Of a stretch of DNA of 64,000 nt, positions 36,891 through 55,199 are shown piece by piece (the first letter of the stretch is position 1; each line of letters starts with the position of its first letter). Both the position numbers and the translations under genes were made by a program. The stretch lies in assembly GCA_963575745.1 (NCBI GenBank), contig CAUYUJ010000093.1:1-64000 (forward strand), written 5' to 3'. The DNA comes from Prorocentrum cordatum (taxonomy: Eukaryota). Under the pieces are notes generated by a model. It was not told the DNA's origin. It did not search any database and worked only from the letters and a program-made list of their open reading frames with translations.

Positions 36891-37039
36891 TCAGACTCGC
36901 ACCCAGACTCACTCATACACAAGCTCACTCACACTCAGATTCATTTCTTCAGAGTCAGGCACACACAGACGTACCCATACTCAGACTCACCCACACTCAG
37001 GCTCACCTAACCCAGACTCCGTCAGAAGCCAGTAGCGAA

Positions 37040-37756
<717 letters not shown>

Positions 37757-38118
37757 ACAAGTAGGCGGACCAGGGTCCGTCCGCGAGGCGCACTGCGGTG
37801 CGACAACCCGCCAAACACTATTTGCGGCGGTGCAGCCTTGAGATACGAGGGCGGGCAACAAACCCCCTCCCCCGGCGCAATGCGACTGACGCTACAGACG
37901 GCGGACAGACAGTGAAGATCTCACGTGTCAGACCGCGTGACGAAGAAGGCCCCAACAAGAAAGGCGACGTGCTGACACGTGGCTAGGCGGCTTGGCAGAC
38001 CGCCAGTTGGGCGCTTGGCCGCAACGCGGCGCGCAGGGACGGGGCACCCCCCGCCCCCACGCCCTGACACCGTGGACGCGGGGCCACGCGTGCACACGGG
38101 CAGGCAGAATGGCGGAGA

Positions 38119-41100
38119 TTAGCGCGGGGCTCCAGGCGGAGCGCCGCGGAGCGATGACAGCATAGCATGGAGGGTGAGTGGCGGCGCAGCACCATCGGGC
38201 GAGGGTGTAAGCAGCTCGGCGAAGGCACGACCGGCGCGGTGGAGGCGCTGGAGCAGAGGGCCTTGACGGGCTTGAGCAGCGGCAAGGTCGGCGGCGAGAG
38301 CAGCACACCTCTGCTGAAGAGCGGCCATAGACTGGGACAGCTCGGCTTCGCGGTCGGTGAGGGGCGGCTGCTCTGTGCCTGCGGCCGCGGGCCTCGTGGC
38401 GGGGACGAGGTCATCGGTGCGCCTGGCCAGGTGGTGGACCAGCGCGGTGCGGCGATCCGTGCGCTGGCGGCCGTCGCCCTTGCGAGGCGACTGGAGGGCA
38501 ACGCGCGGCCCCAGGGCTGAAGCCGCTAGGGCCACGCCCCGTGAGGACGGAGGAGCCGCAGCCTCGCACCCAGCAACAGTAAAAGCGTGGACGGGGTGCG
38601 ACGGCCTGACTGGCTCAGTGCCCTGCGGGGGGGCTGGAGCCGCCCCCGCGGGCTGGCGCTGGTGGGGGGACGGGGTGGGTGGCACGGGGGGACCAATCAT
38701 GATGCCGTGCGAGGGCTCGGAGGTCGGCCGCGTGGTCGGGTGGCGTCTCGATGAAGCGGCATCGTCGGCAGCGTGGGGTGTCGGCGGGGCGTCGTCTATG
38801 CTGCCACTCAATCCGAGGGGATCATAAAGGTCCTCGTCGGCGTCTTGACGGTGAGCGACGTCATCATGTGGGTGCGATGTCGCTCTCGGTGGCGGAGTCG
38901 AGGTGGGCGTCGAGAGGCTGCCCGACGGGGCAGGGTTGGCGCTGGCTGGCCCGTCGTCCAGGAAGTCTAATCCCCCGCCGAAGCCGAACGGGTCGTCCTC
39001 CTGTTCGTCGTGCATCGCCCGTTGGGCCTCGGCCCAGAGCTCATCCGGGTTCTGCGGGATGTATGGTCCAGCCGCGGGTGGTGCCTGGTCCGACAGCAGG
39101 GGGTTCGGTTCCATTTTGCTGAGTTCCGCTGCTGTAAACCCAGCCCTGCGGTGTGGGAGCGGCAGAGTACGGTGTCTGCGCTCGTAGATAGCGACAGCGA
39201 CCCCATGAAGCACGGTCGCTTGGCGATGTCGTGTTTTGGCAGCTTCAACAATGTCGTCGGGGAGGTTGTGCGTGCGTGCCGCCGCTGTGGCAAGGGCGTC
39301 GGCCTGACGGTTGAACTCCTCCGCGATGGGCCCGATGAGCCCAAGGTCGATGCCCAGGTCTCCCAGGTGGCTGGCGATTTTTTCGACGCGAAACATGTTG
39401 GGCTTGGCCATAACACATCGGTGGATCTTTTCCCAGAGCTCCGCGTGCGTGCCCTGCGGCGCTGGATGTCCGTCGATGATGCTTTGGAACCCATCGACCA
39501 CCGCCTGGTTGTCCACGAAAACGTGCACGGGCCGTTCGGCACATGCCGTAAGGTGGACAATGGCGAGGGTCTCCGCAACCTGGGCGTTCTGCGTTAGGCC
39601 GTGAACGCGTGCACTGTAGTTCATGCGGTGATCGATGCCGTAGTAGACGCCGTAACCCGCTCGTGCTAGCAATGGGATGGCTTGGTTGGTGCACGCACCG
39701 TCCGTGGCAGCATAGACCCATGTCCAACCAGTGTCGTAGTCAAGGTAGGTGGTGTAGGTGTCCTGGGCTGAAGCCGCAGGATCACCATCAGGGGAGGGCC
39801 GCGGAATGGGCTGTGGCAGCGGGTCCCTCGCGAGGTCGGCCTGCAGGTCGAGGAGGGCTGGGTCTTCGTCGAAGAGCCCGCAGTGTCTTGTGTGCGGCGG
39901 AAGACGGGCCCACTGGTCGTCACTGATGAGGGTGGTGAGAGGGAGTCTTTCTCGGGCCCAGCACTTACAGTCGCGGACAGTGTGCTCCTGAGTTTCCTCT
40001 TCCTCGTCACAGTAGCGGCACATGGGGCTGGGGTCTGCCGACGTGTTTGATCGGGATCGTCGCTGTTGGGTGTGGTCCCCGCCCGACAGGTAGTTCAGGA
40101 GGAGCGCCAGCTGCCAGGCAGTGCATTTGGCTGCTCCTTTAGTTCGCGCGAGCCACGTGCTGGCGAAGAGGTCAAGGCCCTGTCTGACAGAGGCGAGGTA
40201 GCCAAGGTCGTGTCGCCGTGGCTTGATCCTCCGCAGAAATGCCCTGCGTTGTGAGGCCCGCAGCATGTGCAGGAAGGCGTTTTGGGGTAAATTCAGCCAG
40301 CTGATCGGGCAGCCCCAGTCGTCGTACATGATGCCAAATGTGGGCCAGGTCCATCGGAGCTGCTGGAGCGACTGGACGAGTCGTCCGACGGGTCCTCCAC
40401 CAAACAGGGTCTGGACGTGGTGTTGGAGGTCTCTGGCGAGCCCGCAGAGTGTAACGTCGCGGTTAACCTGTCGCCGCAGGCACAGGAATGCTTCACGCTG
40501 CGTGATGGCGTCGATCTCAAGGGCGTGTCCCGGCACGCACACGGCCATGAGAGTCCAGAACTCGACCCACTTGTTCCCCTTGGGGCGGATAGCCGCCTTG
40601 AGGGCGTGGTTGTAGGCAGTCTTGGCTGGGCCTGATGGTGCTTGAATGTCGGTGCCCGTGGTGCAGACGCTGGCAGCCAGGGATCGGGCGTGCCGCGCCT
40701 TGATAAGCATCGGCGACGGGAGCTTGCCAATGCGCGGCAGGCGGATAGTCGCCCTCCGTACACGGGCGTCTGCGGTGGCCGTGAGGTTAAGCGCGGCTGG
40801 AGCCGGCGCTGCCTCTGCGTTGATGTAACTCCCGACGAGCTTGAAGGAATCGACCACACGTAGGGGGCGATCCGCCAGTGTGAGCTGGGTAACGGCGGCG
40901 TGAAGCTCGTCGGTGAGCGCCCACCCTGCCACTTTACCAGGGTGAATGCGTTGACCTGAGAATCGATCAAACTTGGCGGTTTCGTCGAGAGATTTCTGCA
41001 GCTCAGAAGCGGTGTGGGTAGTGGAGTTGCTGTCGTCAACGAAGGTAGTGCTGAGTGATCGAGGAACGTATCGGTGCTGCCTCTTTGTCCACACGCACAT

Positions 41101-42732
41101 GAGCAGCTTGATGTCATCCAGGGACCACGAGCTGCCCTGGAGGTGACCGTTTGTCCTGGCCAGGTCCCTGGAGTACGCTCCGTTCATGCGGATGTAGCGT
41201 TTGTGGTGTCTGTAGAAATTTCGGCGGACAGTAACGATGTCTTGTGGACACCCCGCGTGCAGCGCAAGGTTTAGACAGATGTCCGTGATGAGGTAGTCGA
41301 AGCACTTCTGTCGGTCAAGGGCAGCTCCAGCTAAGGGGAGGAGTAAAGTCCTGGCGTGTTCGATGCGCAGGGCGAGAGAGGTGCTGACATCCCCAATGGT
41401 GGCTTTGGGAACAGCGCCGAAGCTCGTGGCATGGGTCCATCCTTGCCGCCAGGTCGTGAGGCTACGGTAGGCCGGCGCTTCCCACGCATACATCCACACG
41501 GAAAGAACCGAGAGAAGTCGTTGGTCCGTCGGGAGTTCCCCTCGGCCTTTTCGGAGGCACGGGTTTGGCACGTGCAGGAGGGGCTCGGGGATGGTGCCAG
41601 TGCGTTGCATAGCACGTAAGACGCTGGCGAAGAGGCGAAGGATGTCGTCGGGTAACTCCTTAGCCTCCTTAGTTGTCCAGCCGTCGAGTCCCCCCGCGCG
41701 GCGCGGTGAACGGGTGCGAATGAAGTGGATGAGTTGGTCGTCGGTGAGGTGGAAGGGGGCTGCTGGTGATGGCGTAGGCAGCTCTTGGCGGTATTCGTCG
41801 TAGAAGTCCGCCCACGTCGGCATAGCTTCGGCGTCATGGCCCGCGCGAGCGCGGTACCTGCCCAAGATGGGCTCCCAGGTGTCGACCATGAGCTTAAGCA
41901 TGTCTTTGGTGTTGGCAACAATAGCGTTGGCGGGGAGGGCGTCGGGAACCTGGGCAGGTGGTGGGCCACGAGTGTGGCCGTCGTCGTTGTCCGTGTCGAG
42001 CGAACTACCGTCGCTGGGGCTGAAGCCGCCGGCGTCGGTGTCGGCGTCACTATCGTCCGTGCTAGCTTGGTCAGGGTTGAAGGCGGTGGTGTCGCAGTGG
42101 AGCTGTGCATCGTCGGGAGTGGTAGGCGTGCGGAGATACGCCGTGGGCGAGCAGTCGGCAGCCCGTGCGTATATGGCCGCCTTTCGCCCGCTTGGCTCGC
42201 GGACACCCTCAGCCCAGATCTTGATGCGTTCAGCTTTGGCTCGGTTTGCACGTCGCGCCAGCTCCGAGTCTAGGTTTTGGATCAGACGATCTAGGTGCTC
42301 TCCGCGTGGTGCTGGCACGTCGGGGGCCCAGGCATCAGGAAAGGCCAGGAGGGCCGTGGGGCGCAGCTTGTGGCAGAGAAGGCGGGCCGCGGTCCACGTG
42401 CAGTCGATGCGTTGCGCCAGGTGCGGCGGGATAGCACGGCAGTCCATATGATGGTGCTGTCCGATGAAGCGAAGCTCGCAAAGTTGCCGATGGAGCTTGC
42501 GAAGGCGGTTCATGTGAATCGTGGAAGCTCCGTAGGTGGGAAAGGCGCGGGGGACGGCGGGTCGCTCCTCGAACGTGGGTGTGAGCCCGTGCATGGTAGG
42601 GGCCTTCTTTTTTGGGTGGTCTGGCGGTGGGGGCGGCAGGTCCCGCAGCCGGGTGAGATGGTACTCATGGCTGGCCTCGTTTGCCAGGGCGAACATGCGT
42701 TCCACATCGTCGCGTGTGTCAGCCTGCTCCAT
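38119..42732 (-). CDS. LINE reverse transcriptase + CCHC zinc finger + RNase H
   Basis: RT motifs AGGLDGW, LRKG...DQRLLSVL, ALDRQKCFD, GHLQGSSWS, TFVDD, FKLVG; zinc finger CRYCDEEEETQEHTVRDC; RNase HI TDGAC...AETLA...VDNQ...SH...NRQADALA with all four acidic residues. The frame is open upstream to ~42855 and overlaps the endonuclease ORF. Confidence 0.95.
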   Translation of the reverse strand: MEQADTRDDVERMFALANEASHEYHLTRLRDLPPPPPDHPKKKAPTMHGLTPTFEERPAVPRAFPTYGASTIHMNRLRKLHRQLCELRFIGQHHHMDCRAIPPHLAQRIDCTWTAARLLCHKLRPTALLAFPDAWAPDVPAPRGEHLDRLIQNLDSELARRANRAKAERIKIWAEGVREPSGRKAAIYARAADCSPTAYLRTPTTPDDAQLHCDTTAFNPDQASTDDSDADTDAGGFSPSDGSSLDTDNDDGHTRGPPPAQVPDALPANAIVANTKDMLKLMVDTWEPILGRYRARAGHDAEAMPTWADFYDEYRQELPTPSPAAPFHLTDDQLIHFIRTRSPRRAGGLDGWTTKEAKELPDDILRLFASVLRAMQRTGTIPEPLLHVPNPCLRKGRGELPTDQRLLSVLSVWMYAWEAPAYRSLTTWRQGWTHATSFGAVPKATIGDVSTSLALRIEHARTLLLPLAGAALDRQKCFDYLITDICLNLALHAGCPQDIVTVRRNFYRHHKRYIRMNGAYSRDLARTNGHLQGSSWSLDDIKLLMCVWTKRQHRYVPRSLSTTFVDDSNSTTHTASELQKSLDETAKFDRFSGQRIHPGKVAGWALTDELHAAVTQLTLADRPLRVVDSFKLVGSYINAEAAPAPAALNLTATADARVRRATIRLPRIGKLPSPMLIKARHARSLAASVCTTGTDIQAPSGPAKTAYNHALKAAIRPKGNKWVEFWTLMAVCVPGHALEIDAITQREAFLCLRRQVNRDVTLCGLARDLQHHVQTLFGGGPVGRLVQSLQQLRWTWPTFGIMYDDWGCPISWLNLPQNAFLHMLRASQRRAFLRRIKPRRHDLGYLASVRQGLDLFASTWLARTKGAAKCTAWQLALLLNYLSGGDHTQQRRSRSNTSADPSPMCRYCDEEEETQEHTVRDCKCWARERLPLTTLISDDQWARLPPHTRHCGLFDEDPALLDLQADLARDPLPQPIPRPSPDGDPAASAQDTYTTYLDYDTGWTWVYAATDGACTNQAIPLLARAGYGVYYGIDHRMNYSARVHGLTQNAQVAETLAIVHLTACAERPVHVFVDNQAVVDGFQSIIDGHPAPQGTHAELWEKIHRCVMAKPNMFRVEKIASHLGDLGIDLGLIGPIAEEFNRQADALATAAARTHNLPDDIVEAAKTRHRQATVLHGVAVAIYERRHRTLPLPHRRAGFTAAELSKMEPNPLLSDQAPPAAGPYIPQNPDELWAEAQRAMHDEQEDDPFGFGGGLDFLDDGPASANPAPSGSLSTPTSTPPPRATSHPHDDVAHRQDADEDLYDPLGLSGSIDDAPPTPHAADDAASSRRHPTTRPTSEPSHGIMIGPPVPPTPSPHQRQPAGAAPAPPQGTEPVRPSHPVHAFTVAGCEAAAPPSSRGVALAASALGPRVALQSPRKGDGRQRTDRRTALVHHLARRTDDLVPATRPAAAGTEQPPLTDREAELSQSMAALQQRCAALAADLAAAQARQGPLLQRLHRAGRAFAELLTPSPDGAAPPLTLHAMLSSLRGAPPGAPR

Positions 42733-42764
42733 GCGGTCGTGGTATCGTCCTGCGATGAGGGTCC

Positions 42765-43892
42765 CTAATGCCTGAAGTTCGTGGTCCTCATGAGCTCCGT
42801 CGTTGGAGGGTAAGGCGTGGGGGCCAGAAGGCGTGGGGCCGTGTGATCGAGGCGGCTAAGGTCGAGTGTGACCTGCAGGCCAACATGGGACTTCGCTGGC
42901 AAGTCACGCAGATAGCAGAAGTCGGTGACAAGGGATCGCGCAGCTTGGTTGGCGATGATATAATCGATGCGCGAAGTGCGGGGGCACTTGGTGACGCGGT
43001 CCCAGTCAGGGATATTGCCATATGTGTGCATGGTGTGGTCTGGTGTGCCTTCAGCGACGTTAAACCATCCGTGCTGCATCATGTGCAGCAGATGTGGATT
43101 GTCGTCGATGTTCGTGTTGGCGTCCATGCAAATGAAATACGGGGCTGAGCCGACCCTCGCGGCGGCGCAATCAGCAAGCCGAAACAAATCGGTGCTGTCC
43201 CCTCCAGCGACCCCGTAGAGGCTCGCAATGTAGATCCCAGCGGGACCGTGGTTGTTTCGTCGCCGCCTGCGGCGGTGCTGGGTGCAGAGCGGGAGGAAGG
43301 CCTCGTGCCATCGTTTCTTGGCCTTGAGGGTGGCGATACAGGTCGCAATGTCGTCGACGGTGGAGTCGACGATGGCGTCCTTAGAGAGGATGGCGACCCC
43401 ACCCGAGGCGCCGGTGTTGCCCTCGACCGTGTGGTCCGTGCCACCGTGAGCAGCTTTGCGCTGAGCACGCGCCAGATCCAGGTCAGGTCCCAGACTGGCC
43501 TGGTATCCTCCGTGGTGTGGATTGGCGGCGTTGGTAGCGATGGCTTGCCTGGTAGGCTTGGCATGTCGGGTCTCCTGCAGTGCTATGACTGCGGCGTTGT
43601 GGTCGACACCTAGAGCGGTGATGGTTGGCCAGTTCGCTGGGAGACTCGTGATGTTGAGGCTGACGAGGTGGATGGAGCGACCTGGCCCATCTCCGTCGGT
43701 GGAGCTGGGGTTAGCACGCCCCGCACGGTGGAGGGCAGCCTGGCCGTCACCCAGGTAGAAGGCTTGGCCACAGTAGGAGCTCATGGCGTCGCGGCAGATT
43801 GGCTTGGACGGGGCTGAAGCCGCCGTCGGGCCAAAAGTATAGGCAAGGCATGGTCGACGCTGCGCCGGGGGGGGGGTCATAAACATCGGCAA
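42765..43892 (-). CDS. LINE EEP/APE-type endonuclease
   Basis: SLNITSL, IALQETRH, SGGVAILSK, IASLYG, CMDANT, SRIDYII, SHVGL match EEP motifs in order. Probably part of a polyprotein with the RT via a 1-nt shift. Confidence 0.9.
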   Translation of the reverse strand: MPMFMTPPPAQRRPCLAYTFGPTAASAPSKPICRDAMSSYCGQAFYLGDGQAALHRAGRANPSSTDGDGPGRSIHLVSLNITSLPANWPTITALGVDHNAAVIALQETRHAKPTRQAIATNAANPHHGGYQASLGPDLDLARAQRKAAHGGTDHTVEGNTGASGGVAILSKDAIVDSTVDDIATCIATLKAKKRWHEAFLPLCTQHRRRRRRNNHGPAGIYIASLYGVAGGDSTDLFRLADCAAARVGSAPYFICMDANTNIDDNPHLLHMMQHGWFNVAEGTPDHTMHTYGNIPDWDRVTKCPRTSRIDYIIANQAARSLVTDFCYLRDLPAKSHVGLQVTLDLSRLDHTAPRLLAPTPYPPTTELMRTTNFRH

Positions 43893-46800
43893 AACTGCCT
43901 CGAAAAATCCTCCTCACTCCTGTACCGTGGGGGACGGAGGGAGGAGAGGTGAGACGGCAGCAGGGGGAGAGGGAGGCGACTCCTCGATCCGTCCTGCCGA
44001 GCTCAAGAGCAAAAGCAAACCAGCGGCGGCAGCTCGGCGCGGCAGCGGCGCAGCGCGCGCGCAAATACTGCGCACGCGACACCGCTGGTCCGTCCTGCGG
44101 CGGCGCGCCCGCCCCGTCAGTACCGTGATGAGCAGCATCAGCTGGAACAGCTGGTTCGGGTGCACCCTCCGCGCTCGCCTCGGGCGGTGGGCCCTGTGGC
44201 TGCGGCGGCGCACGCCCTGCCAGCGCGTCAGCCACTAGCTGGGCGTAGCGAGCGGCGCGGTCGGTGGCCTGGCGCTGAGCCTCGTCCATGCCCGCTGCCG
44301 CGAGGCACGCGTTGCGGACAGGGCTGACTCCACGCGGGGCCGCCGCTGCCGCGGCAGCGGCTGAGGTGGCGGGGCCGCCGCCGTGGCTCAGAGGGGGCAG
44401 CGGTGAGCCGCCGCCGAAGCCCGCCGCGAGGCCCTTGACGGAGTACTTGTGCTTGAAGGGGTCGAAGGTCGGCGCCTCGTCGAAGGCGACGACAACGCGG
44501 GTGGGCGGTGGCAGCTCCTGGTCCGTGGACGGCGTCGGCTCGAGGTCGACCTCGCCAGGTTCGATGGCGCTGGCACCGAAACGTGGCACCACCTCGGAGG
44601 CTTGGCCGTCAGCCTGAGTCTCGCGAGGCGGCGAGCTCGTGGAGCTCCCAGGGGGCTTGCGCGAGCTGTGGCGGCTGTAGGACCGGCTGCGCGGGACGCG
44701 CCCGCCCGTGTGGCGGTCACGTGGCGAGGCCACCTGGGCGTTAGCGCGCGCAGAGTCCGCCCTGCTCGGGGAGCGGATCGGCGCTGCGCAGGGTGTTGGG
44801 CTGGGCGGGCGGGAGCCGCCTGTGCCGCCCGCCGCCGAGGCTGCAGCCTGGTCAGGGTCGACGGCGTCGGGCCGGGGGCTGACGTGGTGGGCACTACCCT
44901 CGCTGTGCCGCGGGGAGGCGCTGTGGTGCGCCTGGGTGTGCGTGAGGACGAGCGGGACGAGCGGCTGCCGCTCGCGCTCAGGGGGGGCAGGTTTTGCCTG
45001 GGCAGGGCGCAGCGCTGCGGCCACGTTTGGCGGGGGCGTGTGTTGGCGCGGTTGCCAGGCACGCACGTTCGCCTCGCGCCATCCTTCGGGGCGCCCTGTC
45101 CTGCCACGGCTTGGTGCAGCCCCCTGGGCTGAAGCCGCAGGGGGTGCCACTGCGGGCTGGTTGCTGGCGGTGCTGTCGTGGCGGCCTGGGTAATGGCCCC
45201 AGGCACGCGTGGACCCTGGCACGGGCGAGGTGGCCCGTGGGGGAGCCTGCCCGAGTGCACGCGGGTAGCCGACGACCGCTGGGTGCACCCTGGCGTGGGG
45301 GGCGTGGCCGTAGCTGGAGGCGGCTGCTCCTGCCGCCGCGGGCCTGGCACCAATGGGGCCACGGTGATAGGCGGCGCCCCCGCCGTACACCGCGCTGTCG
45401 CCTGTCGGGACGCGCGCGGGAGAGCGGTTGCGTGGCGTGCTCGGCTGACCTGCGTCGCGTTGGTCGCGCTGCTGGGTGCGCTGCTGGTGCTGTTGGTAGC
45501 GCTGCTGGTCGGCTCTCGAGAGCGGGCGGGTGTCGGGGAGGATGGGCGGCACGTCGGGCCGCCGCCAGCCCTGATAGACGTGCTCGAAGGCATGGTCTGG
45601 GTAAGTCTCCCCGACGGGTGAGTAGCGCCGTACATGCTCCACGAAGTCAATGTTCTGCGGCTCGGGGAGCACCGTGATGTTCACAGCCCGCTGGTGCGCT
45701 GGTCCATAGAGACAGAAGCTACCACGGTTGCTGCGGTCGTGGTTCAACTCGGCTTCGGTCGTGGCACGACTCACCATGGCGTCACAGAGGCGCATGTCGT
45801 AGTCGAGAGCTTGAGGCCCAGGGCCGCCCTCGGCATCCCAGTACAGTACCACATCTCGCCAGCGCGTGCGGGTAGTGTGGATGCGCTCGGCGATAGACTC
45901 GCAGACGGTCCTGACTGTGACACGATCCCTGTGCATGTTGGTGATGGCTAGGGAGTAAGGTCGGCGGACCGCTTTGTTGAAGATGAAATCCTCCTTGAGG
46001 GCCTGGTGAGGGCCGAAGAGCACGTAGCCTTCCTTCCACAGCGGTTGGTCGGGAGACGGGTCTTCAGGCATCCCCGTTCCTGTGAACCCTGGTGGCCGCC
46101 TCGTGCCGTCGGGCAATCCCTGCTTGAGGACGCGACGCGGCCTCGGTGGTAGATACCATTGACCCTGGTATCCTGCTTGGCCTGGTTGCGGAGGCTCCCC
46201 CCCGGGGCCTGAAGGCGCTCGGGGGGGTTCCTTGAGGTCGTGCTGGGCTGGCGCGTTGCCGTATTGGCGGGCGAGGATGTGCGGAGGCATCCCTGTGGCA
46301 CGGACGTCGAACAGGCTGTGCGGACGAGGCGGATGCGGGCATCTGCTGGAGAGGCAGCATGTGTCGGAGTCCCTGTTGTCGGTGCTGTACGCACACGTCC
46401 AGCTGTTGCAAGAGTAGTCCGTGGACCAGTCCATAGGTGCACGTAGTCCGCTGAGGGAGCAGTCCGGGCACGTTGGTTGGCCCGAGGTGCCGAGCTGCGT
46501 GTTGCGGCGGGCAGCACAATACTGACAGCATTGGAATCGGCACTGTAGGCAAGTCCAGCGTCCTGGTAGGGGCGGGAACGCTTGCTCGTCGGTGACTGCG
46601 TCGTCTGGGTGGGGTCGGGGTCGATCCCACAAGGGCCAGACGTCGGCGAACCAGGACTGGCCTGTAGTGCGGACCACCTCCGCGGGGAGGCGAGCGTCGT
46701 CAGCATGGCGCTCGATCCACTGGGGCCCCAGGTCCGCTGCGATCATGACCGTGCGCCAAGTGTCGTCCGCCTTGACGTGGACTTGGGTCGGTGCCCAGAG

Positions 46801-49800
46801 CCTGGTAGTGGTATCGCCATGGTCGTGGTGAAGGATGACCCAGCCATCGCGACCCGCAACCGCAGGGTCGATAACGCGGTGGCCCACAACGGTCGCCCCC
46901 CACGGTAGGTAGGCGCCATCGTGATGCTCGCCCGGGTCAAGCCAGACCTCGACGCCAGGGGCGTTCACACGGGCCCGCACATCGCGGACGTGGAAGGCGA
47001 GGACGTGGTAGGCGGTCGGCTCCTCTTCCGTCTCGATGTGCTCCCACGTCTCGATGTCGCTGCTGTGAGAGGTGGAGTTTCCGCCGCTCTGCCGTGACGA
47101 ACGCGAGGCGGATCGCCGTGAGCGGGCATGGCCTCGGGCGAGGGCGGCGGCCGCGCTGATGAGGGACGGCGTACGGCGGTCGTCGGCTCCCGATGTCGTC
47201 GATGAGCGGTCTGGACTGTGTCCCAGGGCGGCACCTGGCTGATAGGTGTGCGATGGGCCAGACGCGGCCCCAGGGCTGGAGCCGCTGGGGCGCGGCGCTC
47301 GTACGTCGGACTGCCCCCGCACGGGAACGGCCTGCAAACCAGTGTACACCAGGTCGATCAGTGGCTGCGGGTCCAGCTGGAGCTTGCGAAGCGAGGCGCG
47401 CGGACGGGGCTGGTTGGGGTCGGCCCTGGTGGCTGCTTCGGTGTCGTAGTGCTGTGTAGCCCATGCTCGCGCTGCCTCTGGCGAGTATAGTGCCTGCGGC
47501 GGTGGCCACGCTGCCGCGGTGTCCAGCCGGCGCCAGGTGTTTGCTTCCTGGTCGCGGGCTTCAGCCGCCTCGCGGAGGTCTGGGTGATCGAAGCCGGCAA
47601 TGTGGAGGGCGTGCGCACAGTCGCCCATGCCATAGGTGTGTGGGAGGGCACGGCACCTGGAGGCAGCTTCGGTGGGGGCACACCAGTCCATGCGGATGAG
47701 GAGGCCCAGGACCCGTGGGTAGATGAGGCGCGCTCCGTGAGCCTCCCCTTTCACGAAGTTGTGCCAGTTCTCACCGCGCGGCGGTTTGGTAGCCTCGCAC
47801 ATCCAGAGCGCGATGGGTCCCCAGGCGAGGGTGTCGTCTTCGAGGCTGCAGGGCGGGTGAGGCGGCACCGCGTACCACGCGGCCAGCGACGGGTGCACAC
47901 TCACGTACGTGCGGCCGACATTTGTGGCGGTTCGACCCTTCGCTTCACGGCGGGGGCCCGGCAGGAGGTGACCTCCGTTGAAAGCGAGACGAGCCGCAAG
48001 GTCGCCGCGGGTCCCGTGCCAGAAGACCGTGGGCGTGTCAGTGGTGGGTTCACGGAGGTCCCACGTGAGGTAGGGGAAGATCGTCTCGCCTGAGTTCCCA
48101 CCCGAGTCTTCCAGCACCCAAGTGAGTCGGTTCGGGGGCCTCTGCATGATGTCAGTCCACGGCGCCAACGCTTGGAGCGTTGGGTCATGGGTGAATCGAG
48201 GATGGTCGTAGAGTCGCAGGGCGTCTTTGATGTCCTCTGTAGTCACGCCACTGTTACCAAGCGCAAAGCCGTTCTGGTACAGGGAGGTGAGGATGCTCGT
48301 CGGCGGCACGGGGACCGCTGGGTCGCGCTGGATGGTGCTGCGTAAGTTGCGCGTCGGTGGCCTGAGGGCTGGGTGGGGCGTACCAGGGCCTGGAGGCGCC
48401 TGGGGCCTGGCGGGTGATGCGTAGCGTGCTCGCCGTCGTGGTGGTTGGGTGTCCATGTCGGAAGAGGAACCACGAGCATCTGCATGTCGGAAGATGGACC
48501 ACGGGCTGTCGAGGGTGCGCTCACGTGTTTCACTTGCCTCGGCGTCGGTGGCCTGAGCTGTGGCGTCTTCGTGAGTCGGCGGGTTGCCATAGGCCGCGCC
48601 GCTTGTGGGGCCGTCTCGCGGGGACGGGCTGGTCGACCGTGGTGTGACAGACGAGGCTCGCGATACCGCGGCAGTGACTTCAACAATGGCGGCGGTGGTG
48701 GCGGTGGTGACATCGGCGACTGCGGCGGCAACTGCAGCAGCATAGTGTTCCTGTAGCAGCGGGTGTCGAAGAGAGTGCACGTGCTGGCTCTCGGGGTCGT
48801 CGGGATGCGTGCGCGGCATTGTGTGTGTGGCCTCATCGCGCGGCCTCCTGATCGGTTGGCAACAGCGGAGGCACCACTGGGCCGTGGGTGAGTCCAGGGC
48901 GCGCGCACAGATGCGGGCTCCTACGTGTCCGACGGCTCCTTGAGCGAGAAGTTTGGCGCCGACCAGGAGAAGACCGCAAACCACTCCGCCTGTGGCAATA
49001 GCTCCGAGTTTGCCGCTGGCCCATTTCAGGGCACCCCAGAGGCCAGACCCGACTGCGCTGGCTCCGCCCGAGACGATGTCTCTGAGTTTGGCACTGGTCC
49101 ACTTGAGAATACCCCACAAGGCGGGCGCGGCGTCGTATGCCGTTGTGCGTCGGGGCGTAGTGGACACGGATGGGCCTGGTGCCGCAGCTTCACGGCGTCG
49201 TCGCTGCCGGTAGCTGGGGTCTCGGCTCGGTGTCGGCAGGTACCCGTCGATCTGGTCCTTGTACGGCATGGCTACCACGATGGCATACGTGGCCACGAAG
49301 AGGCAGATGAGACAGCCGCAGCGTCGGGAGGCCGCTGCGCTGTGCGGGGCCTCGTAGGAGCCGCTGGCGTCGGGGCTCGCGTCCTCGATGGGATCATTGT
49401 CGATGCCAGCCTGCCAGTGGTCGACGGCGCTGGAGTTGGAGTCAGTCGCGTTAGCTCGGCAGACAAGGGTGCGGGGCGGGGTCCTGCCACCTGAGGTCTG
49501 AAGACGCCCAGATCCAGCCAATGCTGCAGCGGGGCTGAAGCCGCCACTGCGCGGGCTGGTGAGAGCTGGCAGTGCAGTGGAATGGCTTGTCTCGTCGGCG
49601 GCGGTGGCGCCTTCGGCGTCGCTGAGCTGTGCGCTGGGGTCGGCCTGGGCCGAGTTGATGGGCGCACTGCTGTGCGACAGGGGGCGCCCTGTGTAGGGTT
49701 CGCTGTCACGGTCGCGCTGGGCCGTGTCACCTGGCGGTGTCGTGCCGTCGAGGTCCTGGGTTTCCGTGTCGTGGATGGAGTCGTTCTGGCTATCGTCCGA

Positions 49801-50394
49801 CACGTGGAACGAGTCCAGGGATATGTTGCTGATATCGCTGGCAGCGGTGTGCTGGAGCAGAAGCGGTTCGGCGTCGGCCGCGGGCTGGTCACACGTGGCG
49901 TTCTGGGCGAGGGGGCCAGCTGGCGGTGGTAGGTTTAGCGGTTCCATCGGTGCCGCGGCGAGCTCCGCCTCGACAAGCGGCTGCAGGTCTGGCGGGTGGT
50001 GCAGGATCGCATCCGCGAGATACGCCAGGGCGTCTTGGTCGGGCGGAGGGAGGCCTCTTGGCAGCAAGGCGTGGGCCCGTGAGAGGCATGGCGGCAGTGG
50101 TGCCGCGAAAGCCTCAGGGCCGACGAGCTGGGCACGAGCGCCCTGGTATTCCAGAAGAAACCAAAGTAGCGGGTGGGGCACTCGTGGCTGCCCTGGATAC
50201 GAGTGAGGTTGCGGTTGGTGCGCTGTCTGTCGGGGCCCGCTCTGTGCCAGATATCTTCGCACATGTCGAACGCGGTGCGGTGGCGCAGGGCATCGTTTTT
50301 CTCCGCGGAGTCCTCCTGGAAAAAGTGGTCGTACTGTGGCAGATGGAGCGTCGCCAGGACGTGCGGGACGCAGTCCTCGAGCCATGCCCAGCAC
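43747..50394 (-). CDS. 2215-aa cargo ORF: hydrophobic segments, ART/PARP-like domain, SH3-like, Cys-rich and ubiquitin-like modules in P/A/R/S-rich linkers
   Basis: 6.6-kb uninterrupted frame co-oriented with RT; VFWHGTR...TYVS.HP..A.WYA...LGLLIRM (47690-48040); Cys cluster 46320-46560. True start uncertain; probably continues from the upstream ORF near 50180. Confidence 0.75.
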   Translation of the reverse strand: MLGMARGLRPARPGDAPSATVRPLFPGGLRGEKRCPAPPHRVRHVRRYLAQSGPRQTAHQPQPHSYPGQPRVPHPLLWFLLEYQGARAQLVGPEAFAAPLPPCLSRAHALLPRGLPPPDQDALAYLADAILHHPPDLQPLVEAELAAAPMEPLNLPPPAGPLAQNATCDQPAADAEPLLLQHTAASDISNISLDSFHVSDDSQNDSIHDTETQDLDGTTPPGDTAQRDRDSEPYTGRPLSHSSAPINSAQADPSAQLSDAEGATAADETSHSTALPALTSPRSGGFSPAAALAGSGRLQTSGGRTPPRTLVCRANATDSNSSAVDHWQAGIDNDPIEDASPDASGSYEAPHSAAASRRCGCLICLFVATYAIVVAMPYKDQIDGYLPTPSRDPSYRQRRRREAAAPGPSVSTTPRRTTAYDAAPALWGILKWTSAKLRDIVSGGASAVGSGLWGALKWASGKLGAIATGGVVCGLLLVGAKLLAQGAVGHVGARICARALDSPTAQWCLRCCQPIRRPRDEATHTMPRTHPDDPESQHVHSLRHPLLQEHYAAAVAAAVADVTTATTAAIVEVTAAVSRASSVTPRSTSPSPRDGPTSGAAYGNPPTHEDATAQATDAEASETRERTLDSPWSIFRHADARGSSSDMDTQPPRRRARYASPARPQAPPGPGTPHPALRPPTRNLRSTIQRDPAVPVPPTSILTSLYQNGFALGNSGVTTEDIKDALRLYDHPRFTHDPTLQALAPWTDIMQRPPNRLTWVLEDSGGNSGETIFPYLTWDLREPTTDTPTVFWHGTRGDLAARLAFNGGHLLPGPRREAKGRTATNVGRTYVSVHPSLAAWYAVPPHPPCSLEDDTLAWGPIALWMCEATKPPRGENWHNFVKGEAHGARLIYPRVLGLLIRMDWCAPTEAASRCRALPHTYGMGDCAHALHIAGFDHPDLREAAEARDQEANTWRRLDTAAAWPPPQALYSPEAARAWATQHYDTEAATRADPNQPRPRASLRKLQLDPQPLIDLVYTGLQAVPVRGQSDVRAPRPSGSSPGAASGPSHTYQPGAALGHSPDRSSTTSGADDRRTPSLISAAAALARGHARSRRSASRSSRQSGGNSTSHSSDIETWEHIETEEEPTAYHVLAFHVRDVRARVNAPGVEVWLDPGEHHDGAYLPWGATVVGHRVIDPAVAGRDGWVILHHDHGDTTTRLWAPTQVHVKADDTWRTVMIAADLGPQWIERHADDARLPAEVVRTTGQSWFADVWPLWDRPRPHPDDAVTDEQAFPPLPGRWTCLQCRFQCCQYCAARRNTQLGTSGQPTCPDCSLSGLRAPMDWSTDYSCNSWTCAYSTDNRDSDTCCLSSRCPHPPRPHSLFDVRATGMPPHILARQYGNAPAQHDLKEPPRAPSGPGGEPPQPGQAGYQGQWYLPPRPRRVLKQGLPDGTRRPPGFTGTGMPEDPSPDQPLWKEGYVLFGPHQALKEDFIFNKAVRRPYSLAITNMHRDRVTVRTVCESIAERIHTTRTRWRDVVLYWDAEGGPGPQALDYDMRLCDAMVSRATTEAELNHDRSNRGSFCLYGPAHQRAVNITVLPEPQNIDFVEHVRRYSPVGETYPDHAFEHVYQGWRRPDVPPILPDTRPLSRADQQRYQQHQQRTQQRDQRDAGQPSTPRNRSPARVPTGDSAVYGGGAAYHRGPIGARPAAAGAAASSYGHAPHARVHPAVVGYPRALGQAPPRATSPVPGSTRAWGHYPGRHDSTASNQPAVAPPAASAQGAAPSRGRTGRPEGWREANVRAWQPRQHTPPPNVAAALRPAQAKPAPPERERQPLVPLVLTHTQAHHSASPRHSEGSAHHVSPRPDAVDPDQAAASAAGGTGGSRPPSPTPCAAPIRSPSRADSARANAQVASPRDRHTGGRVPRSRSYSRHSSRKPPGSSTSSPPRETQADGQASEVVPRFGASAIEPGEVDLEPTPSTDQELPPPTRVVVAFDEAPTFDPFKHKYSVKGLAAGFGGGSPLPPLSHGGGPATSAAAAAAAAPRGVSPVRNACLAAAGMDEAQRQATDRAARYAQLVADALAGRAPPQPQGPPPEASAEGAPEPAVPADAAHHGTDGAGAPPQDGPAVSRAQYLRARCAAAAPSCRRWFAFALELGRTDRGVASLSPCCRLTSPPSVPHGTGVRRIFRGSFADVYDPPPGAASTMPCLYFWPDGGFSPVQANLPRRHELLLWPSLLPG

Positions 50395-51266
50395 ACGTCC
50401 TGATGGTCCTCACCTGGTGCCCACGCCGCGGCGCACGGTATGAGCCGTGCTCGGATGTTCATCAGGTGCCAGAAAGCGGGGTCCTCCTCGGGTTCACCCC
50501 TGGCGCACAGAGGGGTAGTGGGACTCGTGGGGCTGAAGCGGGGCACGACAGCGGGGCTGAAGCCGCCACTGCGTGCCTGGGCCTTGCTAGCGGCCCTGTC
50601 GAGGATATGCTGCACGACGGTCGAGGACAAGCTGAGGACAGGGTACCATCGAGGATATGCTGCACGACAGTCGACCGCGAGCGTCATGTTGAGTGATGGT
50701 AGCCCTCGTAGCTGAACTTGCATGCGGTGCGAGGCGTGGCCGGAGGACGCAGGAGTCATCTCAGCTGCGGCAACATCGGTGGTCGACTGCGATGCATGTG
50801 TCGTAGTTGACGAGGGCGTGCTCGTAGGAGACATGCTGGTACTCGTCGTAGACGTCGTAGTAGCCGTCGAAGTCCCAGGGGGGCAGCGCGTGGGGCGGGG
50901 CCCCTGGTGCTGCTCAGGCCAGGCGCTCGCGGGGGCGCCCAGCGGCCCGGTGCCGCACGGACCAGCGGCGGCGGTGCTGTTCACGATCGGGTCCAAAATG
51001 GCGCTGTGATCGTATTTGTAGATGCTGTCATCGTAAAGGTAGAAGAGCGTCCCACGCTCCGCATGTCGCAGGAAAGCCTCTCCTCCGTGCTGGGGCGCAC
51101 CGCCTGAAGACGGGTGTGCTCCAGCCAGCGAGGGGAGGGCCAGGCCGCAGGCAAGGCGCCACATGATGGCGAGGCCTGGCGGGCGGCGCGAGCGATGAGC
51201 CGAAAGCTGCGTGGCAGCACACGTCCTCAAATACCCCTGAATGCTCATGTACATTGCTACAATCAC
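49935..51266 (-). CDS. 443-aa ORF with signal-peptide-like and S/T-rich segments; probable N-terminal part of the cargo polyprotein
   Basis: MWRLACGLALPSLAGA, a TSTATTTSTTSTSMSPTST tract, then a W/C/H-rich globular region; overlaps the 2215-aa ORF by 460 nt. Confidence 0.55.
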   Translation of the reverse strand: MIVAMYMSIQGYLRTCAATQLSAHRSRRPPGLAIMWRLACGLALPSLAGAHPSSGGAPQHGGEAFLRHAERGTLFYLYDDSIYKYDHSAILDPIVNSTAAAGPCGTGPLGAPASAWPEQHQGPRPTRCPPGTSTATTTSTTSTSMSPTSTPSSTTTHASQSTTDVAAAEMTPASSGHASHRMQVQLRGLPSLNMTLAVDCRAAYPRWYPVLSLSSTVVQHILDRAASKAQARSGGFSPAVVPRFSPTSPTTPLCARGEPEEDPAFWHLMNIRARLIPCAAAWAPGEDHQDVCWAWLEDCVPHVLATLHLPQYDHFFQEDSAEKNDALRHRTAFDMCEDIWHRAGPDRQRTNRNLTRIQGSHECPTRYFGFFWNTRALVPSSSALRLSRHHCRHASHGPTPCCQEASLRPTKTPWRISRMRSCTTRQTCSRLSRRSSPRHRWNR

Positions 51267-51425
51267 GCCCCCTGCAAGACTACGGGTGTCCCTACACCAG
51301 ATAGCTTGCGCGTGCTGCTGCCAAAACAGACATGAGGTAACAAGAAAGAGATACGACGCGAAGAGGGGAGCGATGCCTCTGAAGGCGCTTCCTCGGAGGG
51401 CTGAGGCGGGCTCTCTGAGGCACCT

Positions 51426-53999
51426 TCAATAGGGTTCCTGGGTGGCCCGACCCTTGTCCTTGCCTTTGTCGGCCCCTGGGGGCCCCGTCCCTGGGGTGGC
51501 CTGGCCTGGCTGGTCGGTCAAACTGCAGGCTGCCGCGGGCTCGGCGGCCGCTGCGGCTTCCTCCTTCTTAGTTTCCAGAGTGGCCGCTTGTGGCAGGTGG
51601 ATGGTGCCTCCCGTGAGGTGCCCGAGGAGGGTCTGGATGTCGCCGCGCAGTGCAGCGGCGTCGGCGGTTGCCGTCTGTTGCTGGGTGACGACGGTGGCAA
51701 GCCCCCGTTCCAGCCCTGAAACGTGCTCCGTGAGTGTGGCCTGGGAGGAGAGAACGCCCGCAAGCTGCACCTGCATGTTATCCACCGTGTTGGCTAGCAG
51801 CTCGTGCTGCTGTTCCATGTGCTGGATGCGGGTCGTGGCAGCATCGGGCGGTTTAGAGGCCGATGCGAAGCGCTCGCCGAAGGTGTTGAGTTCGTGGGAG
51901 GCCACGCTGTATTCATCACCTGATGAGAGGATCTCGACGTCGACGACGTCACCTGGTACTTCGGCGGCTGTGGCAGCGTCGCCTTCGGTGTGGCCCCCAC
52001 CTTCTGCCGCCGCCGTGCCAAGCCAGGGGTCGTGGCCACCTGGTCCTGGGGCGGCCGTCGGTTCAGCGGCTCCGTCCGTGCCGTGCGGGGGCGCAGAGGA
52101 GCTGCGGCCTGGGGCGCAGGGTGGCCTTGCGTGCGGCGTGGCGTCACGTTTCCCGCTGGAGGAGCGGTGGCGCTTGGCTGAAGGCTCCTCCTTGGGGGTC
52201 AGGAGCGGTGCGACGCCCTTGCCTTTGGGCGTGGCAGTCATGAGGTCGTGGAGGTAGGGGCTCTGGGCCGCTTTGGTGAGGAGTGTGCCGGTGGCGGGGC
52301 TAAAGCCGCCACCACCGGCTGGCGGCGTCACAGGCTCTGTGATGGTGGTAGGCGTGACGATGGTAACGTTGTCCCGCTTCGGCGCCACCTCAGCCAGCGG
52401 GGCCTCGGTGATGCTCCACGGGATGGGGCACCCCGCGACCTGCACCGTATAGGTGAGTGGGGGCCGATGAGCGCGCACTAAGGCAAACTGGGCCGCAGTG
52501 GCTGGGTCCCAGGCGGTGTGGTAGACCTCACAGTCCCATTTAACGGACGGGCCCGTGAGAGTCTTGGCGAGCTGGGTCAGCGTGGCGTGGCGTGCCGCAA
52601 TGCCAGTGATGCGGTAGCGCGTCTTGGCGAGGGTAGCCTCGCAGCCGCGGATGCTGACAGCAGCGGCCTTGGCGACGTCGGACCCCCGCGGAACACGGAT
52701 CCCCAGCAGGCCTGACTTGCCGTGCCTGACGACTCCCAGGGCCTTGAACTCCACCGACTTCTGGAACGCGTCTGCCATCGTGATGGGCTGGTCCTCAGGG
52801 AACCAAACGGTCTGATACTTGTCGGCGGTGGGCTCGTCTGCACCTACGTTGCTGAGGTCGTAGGTGGCACCGAGTTGCCCTGATCCCGCCAGGACCTTGT
52901 CGACCGCTTGGAGACTGACGCCGAAGGTGGCAGCCAGGGACCTCTTTCCGACGCCCGATCCAAACCTGCCTAGGCTTTTGCAGGGTTCGAGGATGGTGAC
53001 GGCTTTAAAGTTGCCGTGGAAGAGGGCCTTGAAGGTGTCCTGGAGCTGGCTATCGAGCTCCTGGCGGCGAGCGTCTTTCTTGGACTCCTTGTGCTTTTGG
53101 CGCGCCTTGTCCTGTGGAGCGGAGTCGCCTCGAAAAGGGCCCTTGGCGCGTGGACCACCGTTCACGGGGGCACCTCCCGAGAACTGGTCCTCGAAGGCCT
53201 GGTGCATGGAGGGGACTGCGGCAATGGCCTCGGTCTCGTGTATGGTCGCCCGAATCCAGCAGACGTGGTCGGCAGGGTCGATGGTGGCGACGGCTACCTT
53301 TTCCGTGCAGGCGACCTCCTTGGTGCCCAGCTGGTACACGATCACGGGGACGTGCGTGTGGACCACTTTGGGCGCCTTGGGGTGGCGCTTCAGGACGGGG
53401 ACGGCGAGCTCGGTACCGACGTAGTTGTCGTTTTTCGGGCCCATGACAGCAATCGCGAGCTGACCCGTGGCTCGCTTGCCCTGCTCGAGGTGGTGCTGCA
53501 GCAGCCGTTCACCACTCTCGTAGTCGTGGAGGCTGATGCTGGGCTTGTACGTCTTGCCGTCGTCAGGCGAGGTGGGTTCGGCAAGGACAGGGACCTTCCA
53601 AAAGGCAGGGTCCAAGGCGATGAATTGGGTGTCCGCAGCCTGAAGACGTGCGGAGCCCGCTGGTGGATGCGATGTGTCACCGCCAGTGCGCTTAGGCTTG
53701 CTGCGCTGGTGGTGATCGAGCGTGTAGCTAATCTGGTTGGCGGCGCACATGCGGATAAGGGCGCTGCCAAGCTTCTTCGTGTTGGACTTGTGCATGTCGT
53801 ACATTGCCTGGAGCTCGTCCGCGTTCAGTTCGGCTAGCCCGTTGTAGGCGGCCGTGGGGCGGTCAGACCCCGCTTGCCTGAACGCTGCGATGCAGTCCTG
53901 CTTGCGTTGAAGGAGGGACCCTTCAGCAGCAGGGCGCGTGGGACGGGAGCTCGGAGGCTGCTTAGAAGAGCGACGGCGCTCCGGCTTCTTGGGGGCCAT
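51426..53999 (-). CDS. ORF1-like protein of the LINE (~857 aa)
   Basis: First ORF, ~150 nt from the 5' boundary, starting MAPKK at the ATG at 53999; alpha/beta RRM-like central region (LGIRV...RYRITGI...LVRA..PP) and C-terminal heptad coiled coil (RIQHMEQQHELLANTVDNMQVQL...). Position is typical of ORF1. Confidence 0.75.
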   Translation of the reverse strand: MAPKKPERRRSSKQPPSSRPTRPAAEGSLLQRKQDCIAAFRQAGSDRPTAAYNGLAELNADELQAMYDMHKSNTKKLGSALIRMCAANQISYTLDHHQRSKPKRTGGDTSHPPAGSARLQAADTQFIALDPAFWKVPVLAEPTSPDDGKTYKPSISLHDYESGERLLQHHLEQGKRATGQLAIAVMGPKNDNYVGTELAVPVLKRHPKAPKVVHTHVPVIVYQLGTKEVACTEKVAVATIDPADHVCWIRATIHETEAIAAVPSMHQAFEDQFSGGAPVNGGPRAKGPFRGDSAPQDKARQKHKESKKDARRQELDSQLQDTFKALFHGNFKAVTILEPCKSLGRFGSGVGKRSLAATFGVSLQAVDKVLAGSGQLGATYDLSNVGADEPTADKYQTVWFPEDQPITMADAFQKSVEFKALGVVRHGKSGLLGIRVPRGSDVAKAAAVSIRGCEATLAKTRYRITGIAARHATLTQLAKTLTGPSVKWDCEVYHTAWDPATAAQFALVRAHRPPLTYTVQVAGCPIPWSITEAPLAEVAPKRDNVTIVTPTTITEPVTPPAGGGGFSPATGTLLTKAAQSPYLHDLMTATPKGKGVAPLLTPKEEPSAKRHRSSSGKRDATPHARPPCAPGRSSSAPPHGTDGAAEPTAAPGPGGHDPWLGTAAAEGGGHTEGDAATAAEVPGDVVDVEILSSGDEYSVASHELNTFGERFASASKPPDAATTRIQHMEQQHELLANTVDNMQVQLAGVLSSQATLTEHVSGLERGLATVVTQQQTATADAAALRGDIQTLLGHLTGGTIHLPQAATLETKKEEAAAAAEPAAACSLTDQPGQATPGTGPPGADKGKDKGRATQEPY

Positions 54000-54151
54000 T
54001 GCTGCGGGCACTCTGGTGCGGAGAGGTGACGCGAATCAGTAGGGTCCTGCTGGGACCCCTCCGGTCTCGCGAGGCCTGGGAGTCTGACTCCGAGGCGGGG
54101 CGCTTCGCGTCGCGGCTGCGGTCTGAGTGCAGAGCACTCTCGAGCCGAGAC

Positions 54152-54152
<1 letters not shown>

Positions 54153-54224
<72 letters not shown>

Positions 54225-54386
54225 CGGGAGAGAGCGAGAGAGAGAGAGAGAGCAGAGAGAGAGAGAGAGAGCGGGAGAGAGCGAGGGAGAGCGAGAGAGA
54301 GCGAGAGAGAGCGAGTGAGAGCGAGAGAGAGAGAGAGCGAGAGAGAGCGACAGAGAGCGAGAGAGAGCAAGAGAGAGCGAGAGAGC

Positions 54387-54426
<40 letters not shown>

Positions 54427-54494
54427 GAGAAAGAGAGAGAGAGATAGAGAGAGAGAGAAGAGAAGAGAAGAGAAGAGAAGAGAAGAGAGAGAGC

Positions 54495-54527
<33 letters not shown>

Positions 54528-54760
54528 GAGAGAGCAGAGAGAGAATAGAGAGAAGAGAGAGAGGAGAGAGAGAGAGAGAGAGGCAGAGATAGAGGCAGAG
54601 AGAGAGGCACAGAGAGAGAGGCAGAGAGAGAGAGAGAGGCAGAGAGACAGAGGCAGAGAGAGAGGCAGAGAGAGAGAGAGAGGCAGGGAAAGAGAGGCAG
54701 AGACAGAGAGAGGGCAGAGAGAGAGAGAGAGACAGAGAGAGCAGAGAGAGCAGAGAGAGA
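54153..54760. repeat. (GA)n microsatellite abutting the 5' end of the large LINE
   Basis: Read directly. Confidence 0.95.
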
Positions 54761-55199
54761 GGCAGCTCAGTCACACTTAAATCCAGATTCGTCCTCACCG
54801 AGTCCCACCACCAAGGGAGCGCCAGCAAGGAGATGCACATATGGGGATCCCCACGCAGTGAATAATGTTTTATAATGCGCGAGCACTTCCTGGGCACGCG
54901 ACGCGTCCCGGGGGAAATCTCCCGTCGCGGTCCTCCGCGCCCGCCTCGTTCGGTGTCGTCCCGTCGCCATCCTCGCCGTGGCGCCGTGCCACTGCCGTCG
55001 CGGGCAGCACTGCCGCATGCGCCCTCCTTGACGATCCGCCACCGTGCCGCTGAGCACAGAGTGGGCGTGTCCTCAAGTTCTTTGCCAAATCCGCTAAACA
55101 CTCATGAAGAATCTTCAAGGGGCCCTGACCCCAAATTGCCAAATCTTCTTGGATTTGTCGCGTGCCCCCTGGGACTTCTCGCGGTTTCTCACGTGACTT

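Follow-up and report, generated by a model that had tools for sequence, protein, structure and literature searches.

We have analysed a stretch of 64,000 nucleotides from Prorocentrum cordatum (contig CAUYUJ010000093.1, positions 1 to 64,000 of the forward strand; hereafter the window), the minus strand of which carries a non-LTR (non-long terminal repeat) retrotransposon of about 16.4 kb. Ahead of its endonuclease and reverse transcriptase (RT), in a long N-terminal extension of the polyprotein, lies a domain that very likely has the ADP-ribosyltransferase (ART) fold, with the PARP type as its nearest relation. The frames of the element, the domain and its conserved columns are collected in Table 1. 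The window is GC-rich (0.51-0.72 per 2-kb bin), and the element unit was placed at about 54152..37753, since it is bounded on both sides by (CT)n arrays. Its coding capacity exceeds 5,000 codons, about 2,200 of which form the extension ahead of the apurinic/apyrimidinic endonuclease (APE).

Table 1. Features of the retrotransposon, its ART-like domain and the columns conserved among relatives; residues are those of protein P0001, positions those of the window, and counts are taken over the sequences having a residue in that column.
Feature	Residues	Positions	Strand	Remarks
(CT)n array immediately before the element		54153..54761	minus	
Upstream frame, 869 codons		54035..51429	minus	Without known domain
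Continuation, 496 codons		51425..49938	minus	Same frame as the 869-codon one, after a single in-frame TGA (51428..51426); without known domain
Stop-free frame, 2220 codons		50409..43750	minus	Carries the ART-like domain; N-terminal extension of the endonuclease/RT polyprotein
APE frame, 382 codons		43913..42768	minus	Pfam Exo_endo_phos
RT frame, 1578 codons		42855..38122	minus	Putative RT (with FVDD), Cys-rich motif, RNase H-like region and C-terminus of low complexity
(CT)n array directly past the 3' untranslated region, 714 bp		37039..37752	minus	AG on the plus strand; tail or target
Full module kept among relatives (P0002)	~695-1010	~47365..48312	minus	ART core preceded by a helix/strand part and followed by a helical part that has the SRxR and GDC motifs
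PARP-like ART-fold core, ~165 residues	~739-905	~47680..48180	minus	
Peptide TVFWHGTRG	789-797	48030..48004	minus	
Peptide VGRTYVSVHP	826-835	47919..47890	minus	
Peptide IALWMCEA	861-868	47814..47791	minus	
Peptide IYPRVLGLLIRMD	891-903	47724..47686	minus	
W/F	792			Within the first motif
H-G-T-R, end of strand 1 (PARP HGS/HGT position)	793-796	48007..48018	minus	H 13/15 (Q 2), G 14/15, T 11/14, R 14/14
PGPRRE loop	R816			R 16/16
Y (PARP YFA/YLS position)	830	47905..47907	minus	Y 12/13, C 1
A	838			15/15
Second pocket tyrosine, 11 residues past Y830	841	47872..47874	minus	Y 14/15, H 1
C-E	E867			E 16/20
V	881			16/19
H-G-A-R, start of the penultimate strand	886-889	47728..47739	minus	H 15/18, A 14/18, R/K 14/18, E at 889 1/18
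L-I-Y-P				Directly after R/K889
R	901			17/17
D	903			16/17

The assignment to a retrotransposon was made from its enzymes. In the 382-codon frame Exo_endo_phos was matched above its Pfam cut-off (E=1.7e-7, 31.7 bits against 24.5). In the 1578-codon frame RVT_1 (E=0.0076, 16.4 bits, cut-off 29.6) and RNase_H (E=0.0098) were found below theirs, with the FVDD motif present and PDB RNase H1 chains matched at E 0.02-0.05, and a PDB sequence search with the endonuclease and RT frames matched no RT or APE chain. Judging from these scores, the RT and RNase H sequences have diverged too far to reach the Pfam cut-offs. The order APE-RT-RNase H, together with the many-variant repeat nature of the sequence described below, bears out the claim of the sequence-only reading that the domain lies inside a retrotransposon, and we regard it as almost certain that the ART-like domain is part of one. 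Pfam found no credible family in the remainder of the 2215-residue protein or in the upstream frames, and a tblastn search within the window returned the frame itself and no second copy.

Four peptides had been singled out by the sequence-only reading as marks of an ART domain. All four were recovered in a single minus-strand frame, jointly at 48030..47686 (residues 789-903), within an open reading frame (ORF) of 2215 codons at 50394..43747, the product of which is protein P0001. The domain had been placed, with no strand given, at 47690..48040, an interval that does contain the core, but the domain extends further than this, and the conserved module further still (Table 1). Judging from the alignment of relatives, in which the motifs are conserved columns, the occurrence of the peptides exceeds chance. 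The same reading had looked to structure prediction for an ART fold and to homologues for conservation of the H-G-T and tyrosine residues. As described in the following paragraphs, PARP catalytic domains were the best matches of the AlphaFold2 (AF2) models, and H793, Y830 and Y841 are kept in nearly all relatives having a residue in these columns, so that the earlier claim of an ART domain within a retrotransposon is supported and was largely right.

An exhaustive HMMER search of 1.84 billion representatives with P0002 (residues 695-1010) as the query returned 22 matches at E<=1e-3, including 11 with E<=1e-10 and 7 with E<=1e-30. Of the 22, all but one are real relatives; these 21 are fragments of 51-353 residues that are 27-66% identical to P0002. 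The remaining match, P0024 (E=4e-4), is a repeat protein of 1574 residues; it was judged spurious and was excluded from all alignments. A profile search added three more relatives, P0025, P0026 and P0027. P0026 is a 420-residue fragment, 92% identical, entered at NCBI as a partial protein from a metagenome bin labelled Myxococcales, and its bacterial label probably reflects a eukaryotic contig mis-binned into a bacterial metagenome-assembled genome, while P0027 (94% identical over 70 residues) comes from a Pyramimonas sp. protein set. When patterns from a closer alignment were sought in the JGI metagenomes, 175 matches were obtained, and none of them was confirmed as a relative. The alignments comprise 24-25 rows, mostly fragments, with P0018 omitted from alignment A4 only. 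Homology was found to run on to about residue 1010, through a C-terminal part that is helical and contains the SRxR and GDC motifs. Pfam has no model for the domain family, and none of its members bears a name. A by-eye suspicion that P0020 extends into the next downstream domain was unsupported by BLASTP.

Among 25 family members scanned, two gave sub-threshold matches to the Pfam PARP model. In P0008, residues 81-139 were aligned with model positions 47-102 at E=0.0047, the matched stretch being exactly the segment with the WHGTR, PGPRR, KTYC and LAAQY motifs, and in P0014 the match reached 10.6 bits (E=0.39); the gathering cut-off of PF00644 (26.7 bits) was reached by none of the 25. By language-model features, P0002 was nearest to the PARP, Exotox-A_cataly, DUF3990 and ART-PolyVal clusters, with scores of 0.85-0.90. 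The AF2 model of P0002 (model 1) had a predicted local distance difference test score (pLDDT) of 75 and a predicted template modelling score (pTM) of 0.64, and a model trimmed to residues 739-920 had a pLDDT of 77 and a pTM of 0.77. When model 1 was compared with the PDB by Foldseek, six matches had E<=1e-3, and all 39 of the matches listed were ART domains of PARP4, 2, 10, 1, 16 or 3, the best being 8swy_A (E=2.7e-5, probability 1.00; TM 0.2-0.33). With the trimmed model all 38 matches listed were PARP1, 2, 3, 4 or 10 (best E=1.6e-4, TMq 0.43).

An all-chain structural scan with VIA-align, which covers 48,161 chains and is independent of Foldseek, gave the same ordering. With model 1 the first 14 ranks were PARP-family chains (Z 5.4-6.2), and with the trimmed model this held for ranks 1-16 (Z 5.8-7.3), led by PARP10 (3hkv_A, Z 7.3, root-mean-square deviation 3.7, 129 residues aligned) and including PARP13 (7.1), PARP2, PARP1, PARP4 and PARP3 (6.8), SRO1 (6.1), and RCD1 and TASOR (5.8). 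They were followed by a Tpt1-type chain (5.6) and an Rhs toxin (5.2), and then by the pertussis, exotoxin-A, diphtheria-like, heat-labile and scabin toxins, Arr and Tpt1. Among the best 50 rows at least 38 are, by their titles, PARPs, ADP-ribosylating toxins, Tpt1 or Arr. A viral structure library gave no match at E<=1e-3, with several PARP- or ART-named viral proteins among its weak rows. Four partly independent lines thus agree on PARP/ART, and we are confident, as far as predicted models allow, that the domain has the ART fold; within the ART superfamily the PARP type is, in these models, the nearest.

The arrangement of the pocket points in the same direction. In the trimmed model F791-R796 form strand 1 (model residues 53-58, which include H793), T829-S832 form the strand carrying Y830 (model 91-94), and a helix (model 97-103) ends at Y841. 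The stretch G-P-I-A-L-W-M-C-E-A makes up a long fourth strand, and the last two strands are A888-I891 (DSSP 150-153) and P893-C905. PARP1 and diphtheria toxin have a spacing of 11 between their two pocket tyrosines, the same as that of Y830 and Y841. In PMC7955679, PARP motifs are tabulated as HGS/HGT and YFA/YLS/YLT, and the H-Y-I and H-Y-Y types are listed as mono-ARTs. The H-G-T, Y-V-S and second tyrosine of the present domain agree with these tabulated motifs. A putative NAD+-pocket signature is thus retained, namely an H-G-T that ends strand 1, followed by Y830 and Y841.

In ARTs the penultimate strand begins with the catalytic glutamate. Placed by secondary structure and not by superposition, the corresponding third position of the present domain falls at about A888, plus or minus one or two residues, where the conserved motif is H-x-A-[R/K]. 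The triad is H-Y-(non-Glu), and the domain therefore stands outside the Glu-bearing, poly-ART-competent H-Y-E group; it would be either a mono-ART-type enzyme or a pseudo-PARP.

Parts of the 2.5-kb stretch round the domain (46500-49000) were found, among the matches listed, in 20 sequencing runs, which belong to 16 studies and comprise metagenomes of marine, estuary and freshwater origin together with three coded organisms; nine of the runs contain at least half of the sampled words, and there was no RNA run among those listed as carrying the stretch. Contig pieces from four runs were mapped on 38000-55000 at 90% identity or more, giving 79,616 pieces in X1, 6,299 in X3, 961 in X7 and 657 in X4. 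The X1 pieces divide into 30,828 at 99% identity or above, 31,662 at 95-99% and 17,126 at 90-95%. Coverage extended over 30 of 30 bins in all four runs, with dozens of distinct variant contigs per site, and the ART-like region was covered in each of the four, as is the rest of the element. Because mapping depth does not equal copy number, all that is claimed here is that the sequence is repeated, occurs in many variants and is represented by many near-identical pieces.

These variants also bear on the state of the frames. A base is missing from a G run at 43867 in 12.9 of a depth of 12.9 in X7, 5.36 of 5.36 in X4, 202 of 2656.8 in X1 and 614.5 of 2693.5 in X3. An A is inserted at 42804 in X7 (29.7 of 29.7), X3 (573.5 of 4349.2) and X1 (138 of 1213), with 0 of 7.23 in X4, and a G is inserted at 50160 in X3 (1285.7 of 1285.7), X7 (32.7 of 41.2), X1 (36.3 of 199.7) and X4 (4.29 of 19.1), with a similar picture at 50156. 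These one-base insertions and deletions of other copies fall exactly inside the three frame overlaps of the window. Since by frame arithmetic each of them joins neighbouring frames, the ART-bearing frame, the APE and the RT/RNase H would be a single ORF in some copies. The state of the window at 43867 (in the G homopolymer) and at 42804 is common to most of the X1 and X3 depth, and the frame breaks may mark either a dead subfamily or slippage or frameshifting.

From these data we propose that the domain is an NAD+-binding mono-ADP-ribosyltransferase with an "H-Y-non-Glu" triad, comparable to PARP10 or PARP16, which serves the element in cis, and we give this reading a probability of roughly 0.45. 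The domain would bind NAD+ and transfer a single ADP-ribose; that it is an active transferase at all we hold to be slightly short of an even bet. Being joined to the endonuclease and RT in one polyprotein, the domain might act in cis, within the ribonucleoprotein of the element at the nicked target, and the ADP-ribose mark might be placed on the domain itself, on a host factor or on a nucleic-acid end. A role specifically at the integration site is doubtful. The other roles put forward by the sequence-only reading, countering host silencing or acting as a toxin, found neither support nor contradiction in these results. According to PMC8535693, PARP1 and PARP2 assemble at the integration sites of the human long interspersed nuclear element (LINE) L1, PARP2 activation recruits RPA, and loss of PARP lowers retrotransposition. 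In human LINE-1 the PARP activity at integration sites comes from the host, whereas the present element encodes a PARP-like domain itself, and might thereby supply its own PARP signal, which LINE-1 gets from host PARP1/PARP2. In its boldest form, which we consider improbable, the proposal would be that a giant-LINE family took a PARP-type enzyme into its polyprotein, and that in the course of target-primed reverse transcription this enzyme ADP-ribosylates a protein or the end of the nicked DNA, with an H-x-A-[R/K] arrangement undescribed for any ART and with the host PARP signal made dispensable.

A number of observations weigh against this reading. The domain of the window itself matched no Pfam family at E<=10, and PDB sequence searches with the protein (phmmer), with the family profile and with P0008 gave no matches in any of the three cases; the best PARP score, that of P0008, was 16.9 bits, under the 26.7-bit cut-off. 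The language-model result is a lead only, because recognition was 1908 (below 2300) and the scores did not exceed 0.9. The structural scores are likewise middling (Z at most 7.3, TM 0.2-0.43, large deviations), and VIA-align itself warns that a Z below 8 may by itself reflect a merely common arrangement, so that the case for the fold rests on the uniform ranking. Residues 884-889 hold no conserved acidic residue (E in 2/18 at 884 and 1/18 at 889), we know of no precedent among active PARPs for a basic residue beside the third position, and two relatives carry Q in place of H793. Word-indexed searches among proteins of 736-2100 and 1218-3877 residues found no full-length relative in which the order of domains might be compared, which is weak evidence, and the copy in the window is broken by three frame changes and one in-frame TGA.

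Since the third position is without a conserved glutamate, the main rival is a pseudo-PARP, that is, an ART fold devoid of transferase activity that would serve in the ribonucleoprotein as a scaffold or as a module binding protein, nucleic acid, ADP-ribose or NAD+, like TASOR, PARP13 and RCD1/SRO. We take it to be a serious possibility, held with something like one-in-three conviction. The H-x-A-[R/K] motif speaks for it, as does the presence of pseudo-PARPs among the best structural matches of the trimmed model, where they score about like active PARPs (PARP13, SRO1, RCD1 and TASOR, with the Z scores given above), and the many conserved arginines (R796, R815, R816, R828 and R901) would suit a phosphate-rich partner. 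Pseudo-PARPs have usually lost the residues of the NAD+ pocket, whereas here 12-14 of 13-15 sequences retain H793, G794, Y830 and Y841, even at identities of about 30%, and Glu-less mono-ARTs of the H-Y-I and H-Y-Y types are listed as active in PMC7955679. A special case within the enzyme reading is a nucleic-acid-directed ART, which would place ADP-ribose onto the phosphate or a base of a DNA or RNA terminus, as do Tpt1/KptA, DarT and, on DNA ends, PARP3, for instance onto the 5' phosphate at the nick or onto the RNA of the element. The fusion of the domain to nucleic-acid enzymes would fit such an activity, as would the conserved basic residues clustered round the pocket motifs, including the R/K next to the third position, and Tpt1-type chains are the best matches outside the PARPs (9ld3_A, Z 5.6; 7yw2_A, 4.0; 7kw9_A, 3.9). 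With the Tpt1/KptA chains the alignment covers the ART lobe (Z 3.6-5.6 over 74-83 residues). PARP-family chains, however, score higher with 129-147 residues aligned, and we consider this special case unlikely.

Still less likely is that the element has no functional ART domain, the model being a chance or over-fitted rendering of another fold, or the segment a decaying piece of a host PARP that is carried along. It is true that every sequence-only test on the protein of the window was blank, that Z stayed below 8 and that the alignment is shallow and mostly of fragments. Set against this are the convergence of the four lines on PARP/ART, the finding that the motifs are the best-conserved columns among relatives down to 27% identity, and the coverage of the domain region in all four runs, like that of the remainder of the element. 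The comparison with the 92%-identical P0026 also weighs against this rival, as the ART core has 13 differences in 167 residues against 31 in 213 in the stretch just upstream, and none of the motif residues is changed.

Compared with known systems, the domain shares most with PARP catalytic domains (PF00644; PARP10, PARP16 and similar Glu-less mono-ARTs), which are its best structural matches and have H-G-T, Y-x-S and A-A-x-Y in the same order. The non-Glu third position is likewise shared with the H-Y-I and H-Y-Y PARPs of PMC7955679. Unlike those domains, it is sub-threshold in Pfam, has H-x-A-[R/K] with a basic neighbour at the third position, carries a conserved PGPRRE loop of its own, is extended at the C-terminus by a helical SRxR/GDC part, and has as its partner a LINE polyprotein instead of WWE, macro, zinc-finger or BRCT modules. 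With the pseudo-PARPs TASOR, PARP13/ZAP and RCD1/SRO it has in common an ART fold lacking the catalytic glutamate (Z 5.8-7.1), whereas here the histidine and both tyrosines of the pocket are conserved, and the domain belongs to a transposon and not to host defence. TASOR and ZAP act in the control of transposons or viruses. NEURL4, which the sequence-only reading had named beside PARP, has an ART with the motifs HGS, LLS and ELE, undetected by Pfam, according to PMC7955679. When the motifs alone are compared, the H-G-S/T of the first is shared, but the second has Y here against L, and the third is without the E of NEURL4; the motifs by themselves look more like those of PARPs.

Like APE-type non-LTR retrotransposons with extra domains, the element has the order APE-RT-RNase H-like, many variant copies and a simple-repeat 3' end. 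It differs from them in its size, which at about 16.4 kb and over 5,000 codons is unusual for a LINE, in the 2,200-codon extension ahead of the APE and in having a PARP-like domain of its own. Domains of the ART/PARP kind have been described in host proteins of repair and defence, in toxins and in viruses. A search of full-text literature, including the accessible part of PMC3417536, found, among the matches listed, no retrotransposon-encoded ART/PARP domain; most subscription journals and Repbase reports lie outside its coverage. The fold and the class of element are each known, the combination appears to be new and the motif at the third position is unusual. A LINE that encodes a PARP-like module itself would offer a natural experiment on what ADP-ribosylation does in target-primed reverse transcription. 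Should the domain prove active in spite of the missing glutamate and the basic residue at the site, the known catalytic repertoire of ARTs would be widened; if it is inactive, it would be a transposon-borne pseudo-PARP, which deserves attention since the host pseudo-PARPs TASOR and ZAP oppose transposons and viruses.

Other parts of the polyprotein also have features of their own. Downstream of the ART-like module, residues 1125-1345 of P0001 (46360-47022, minus strand) form a beta-rich stretch followed by a Cys-rich cluster. By language-model features this segment is weakly SH3-like (best score 0.88, a lead only), and Pfam was blank for it. At about residues 355-500 (48900-49400, minus strand) hydrophobic stretches resembling membrane helices were seen by eye at about 360-380 and 460-490, as were repeated motifs of the form LWG.LKW.S.KL; such features are odd for a LINE protein. 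The RNase H-like region lies at 38986-39618 (minus strand), downstream of the RT, with the Cys-rich motif ahead of it.

The (CT)n arrays that flank the element have a period of 2, with 360 and 307 copies. They might belong to a family with a (CT)n tail, present as two tandem copies, or else reflect insertion into (CT)n microsatellites. Just beyond the (CT)n tail a 152-bp tandem repeat of 5.4 copies with 98% matches was found (35964-36781), and the opposite flank of the element contains extensive 10/11/21-bp arrays of the CCAAGACGGC type (55229-57912).

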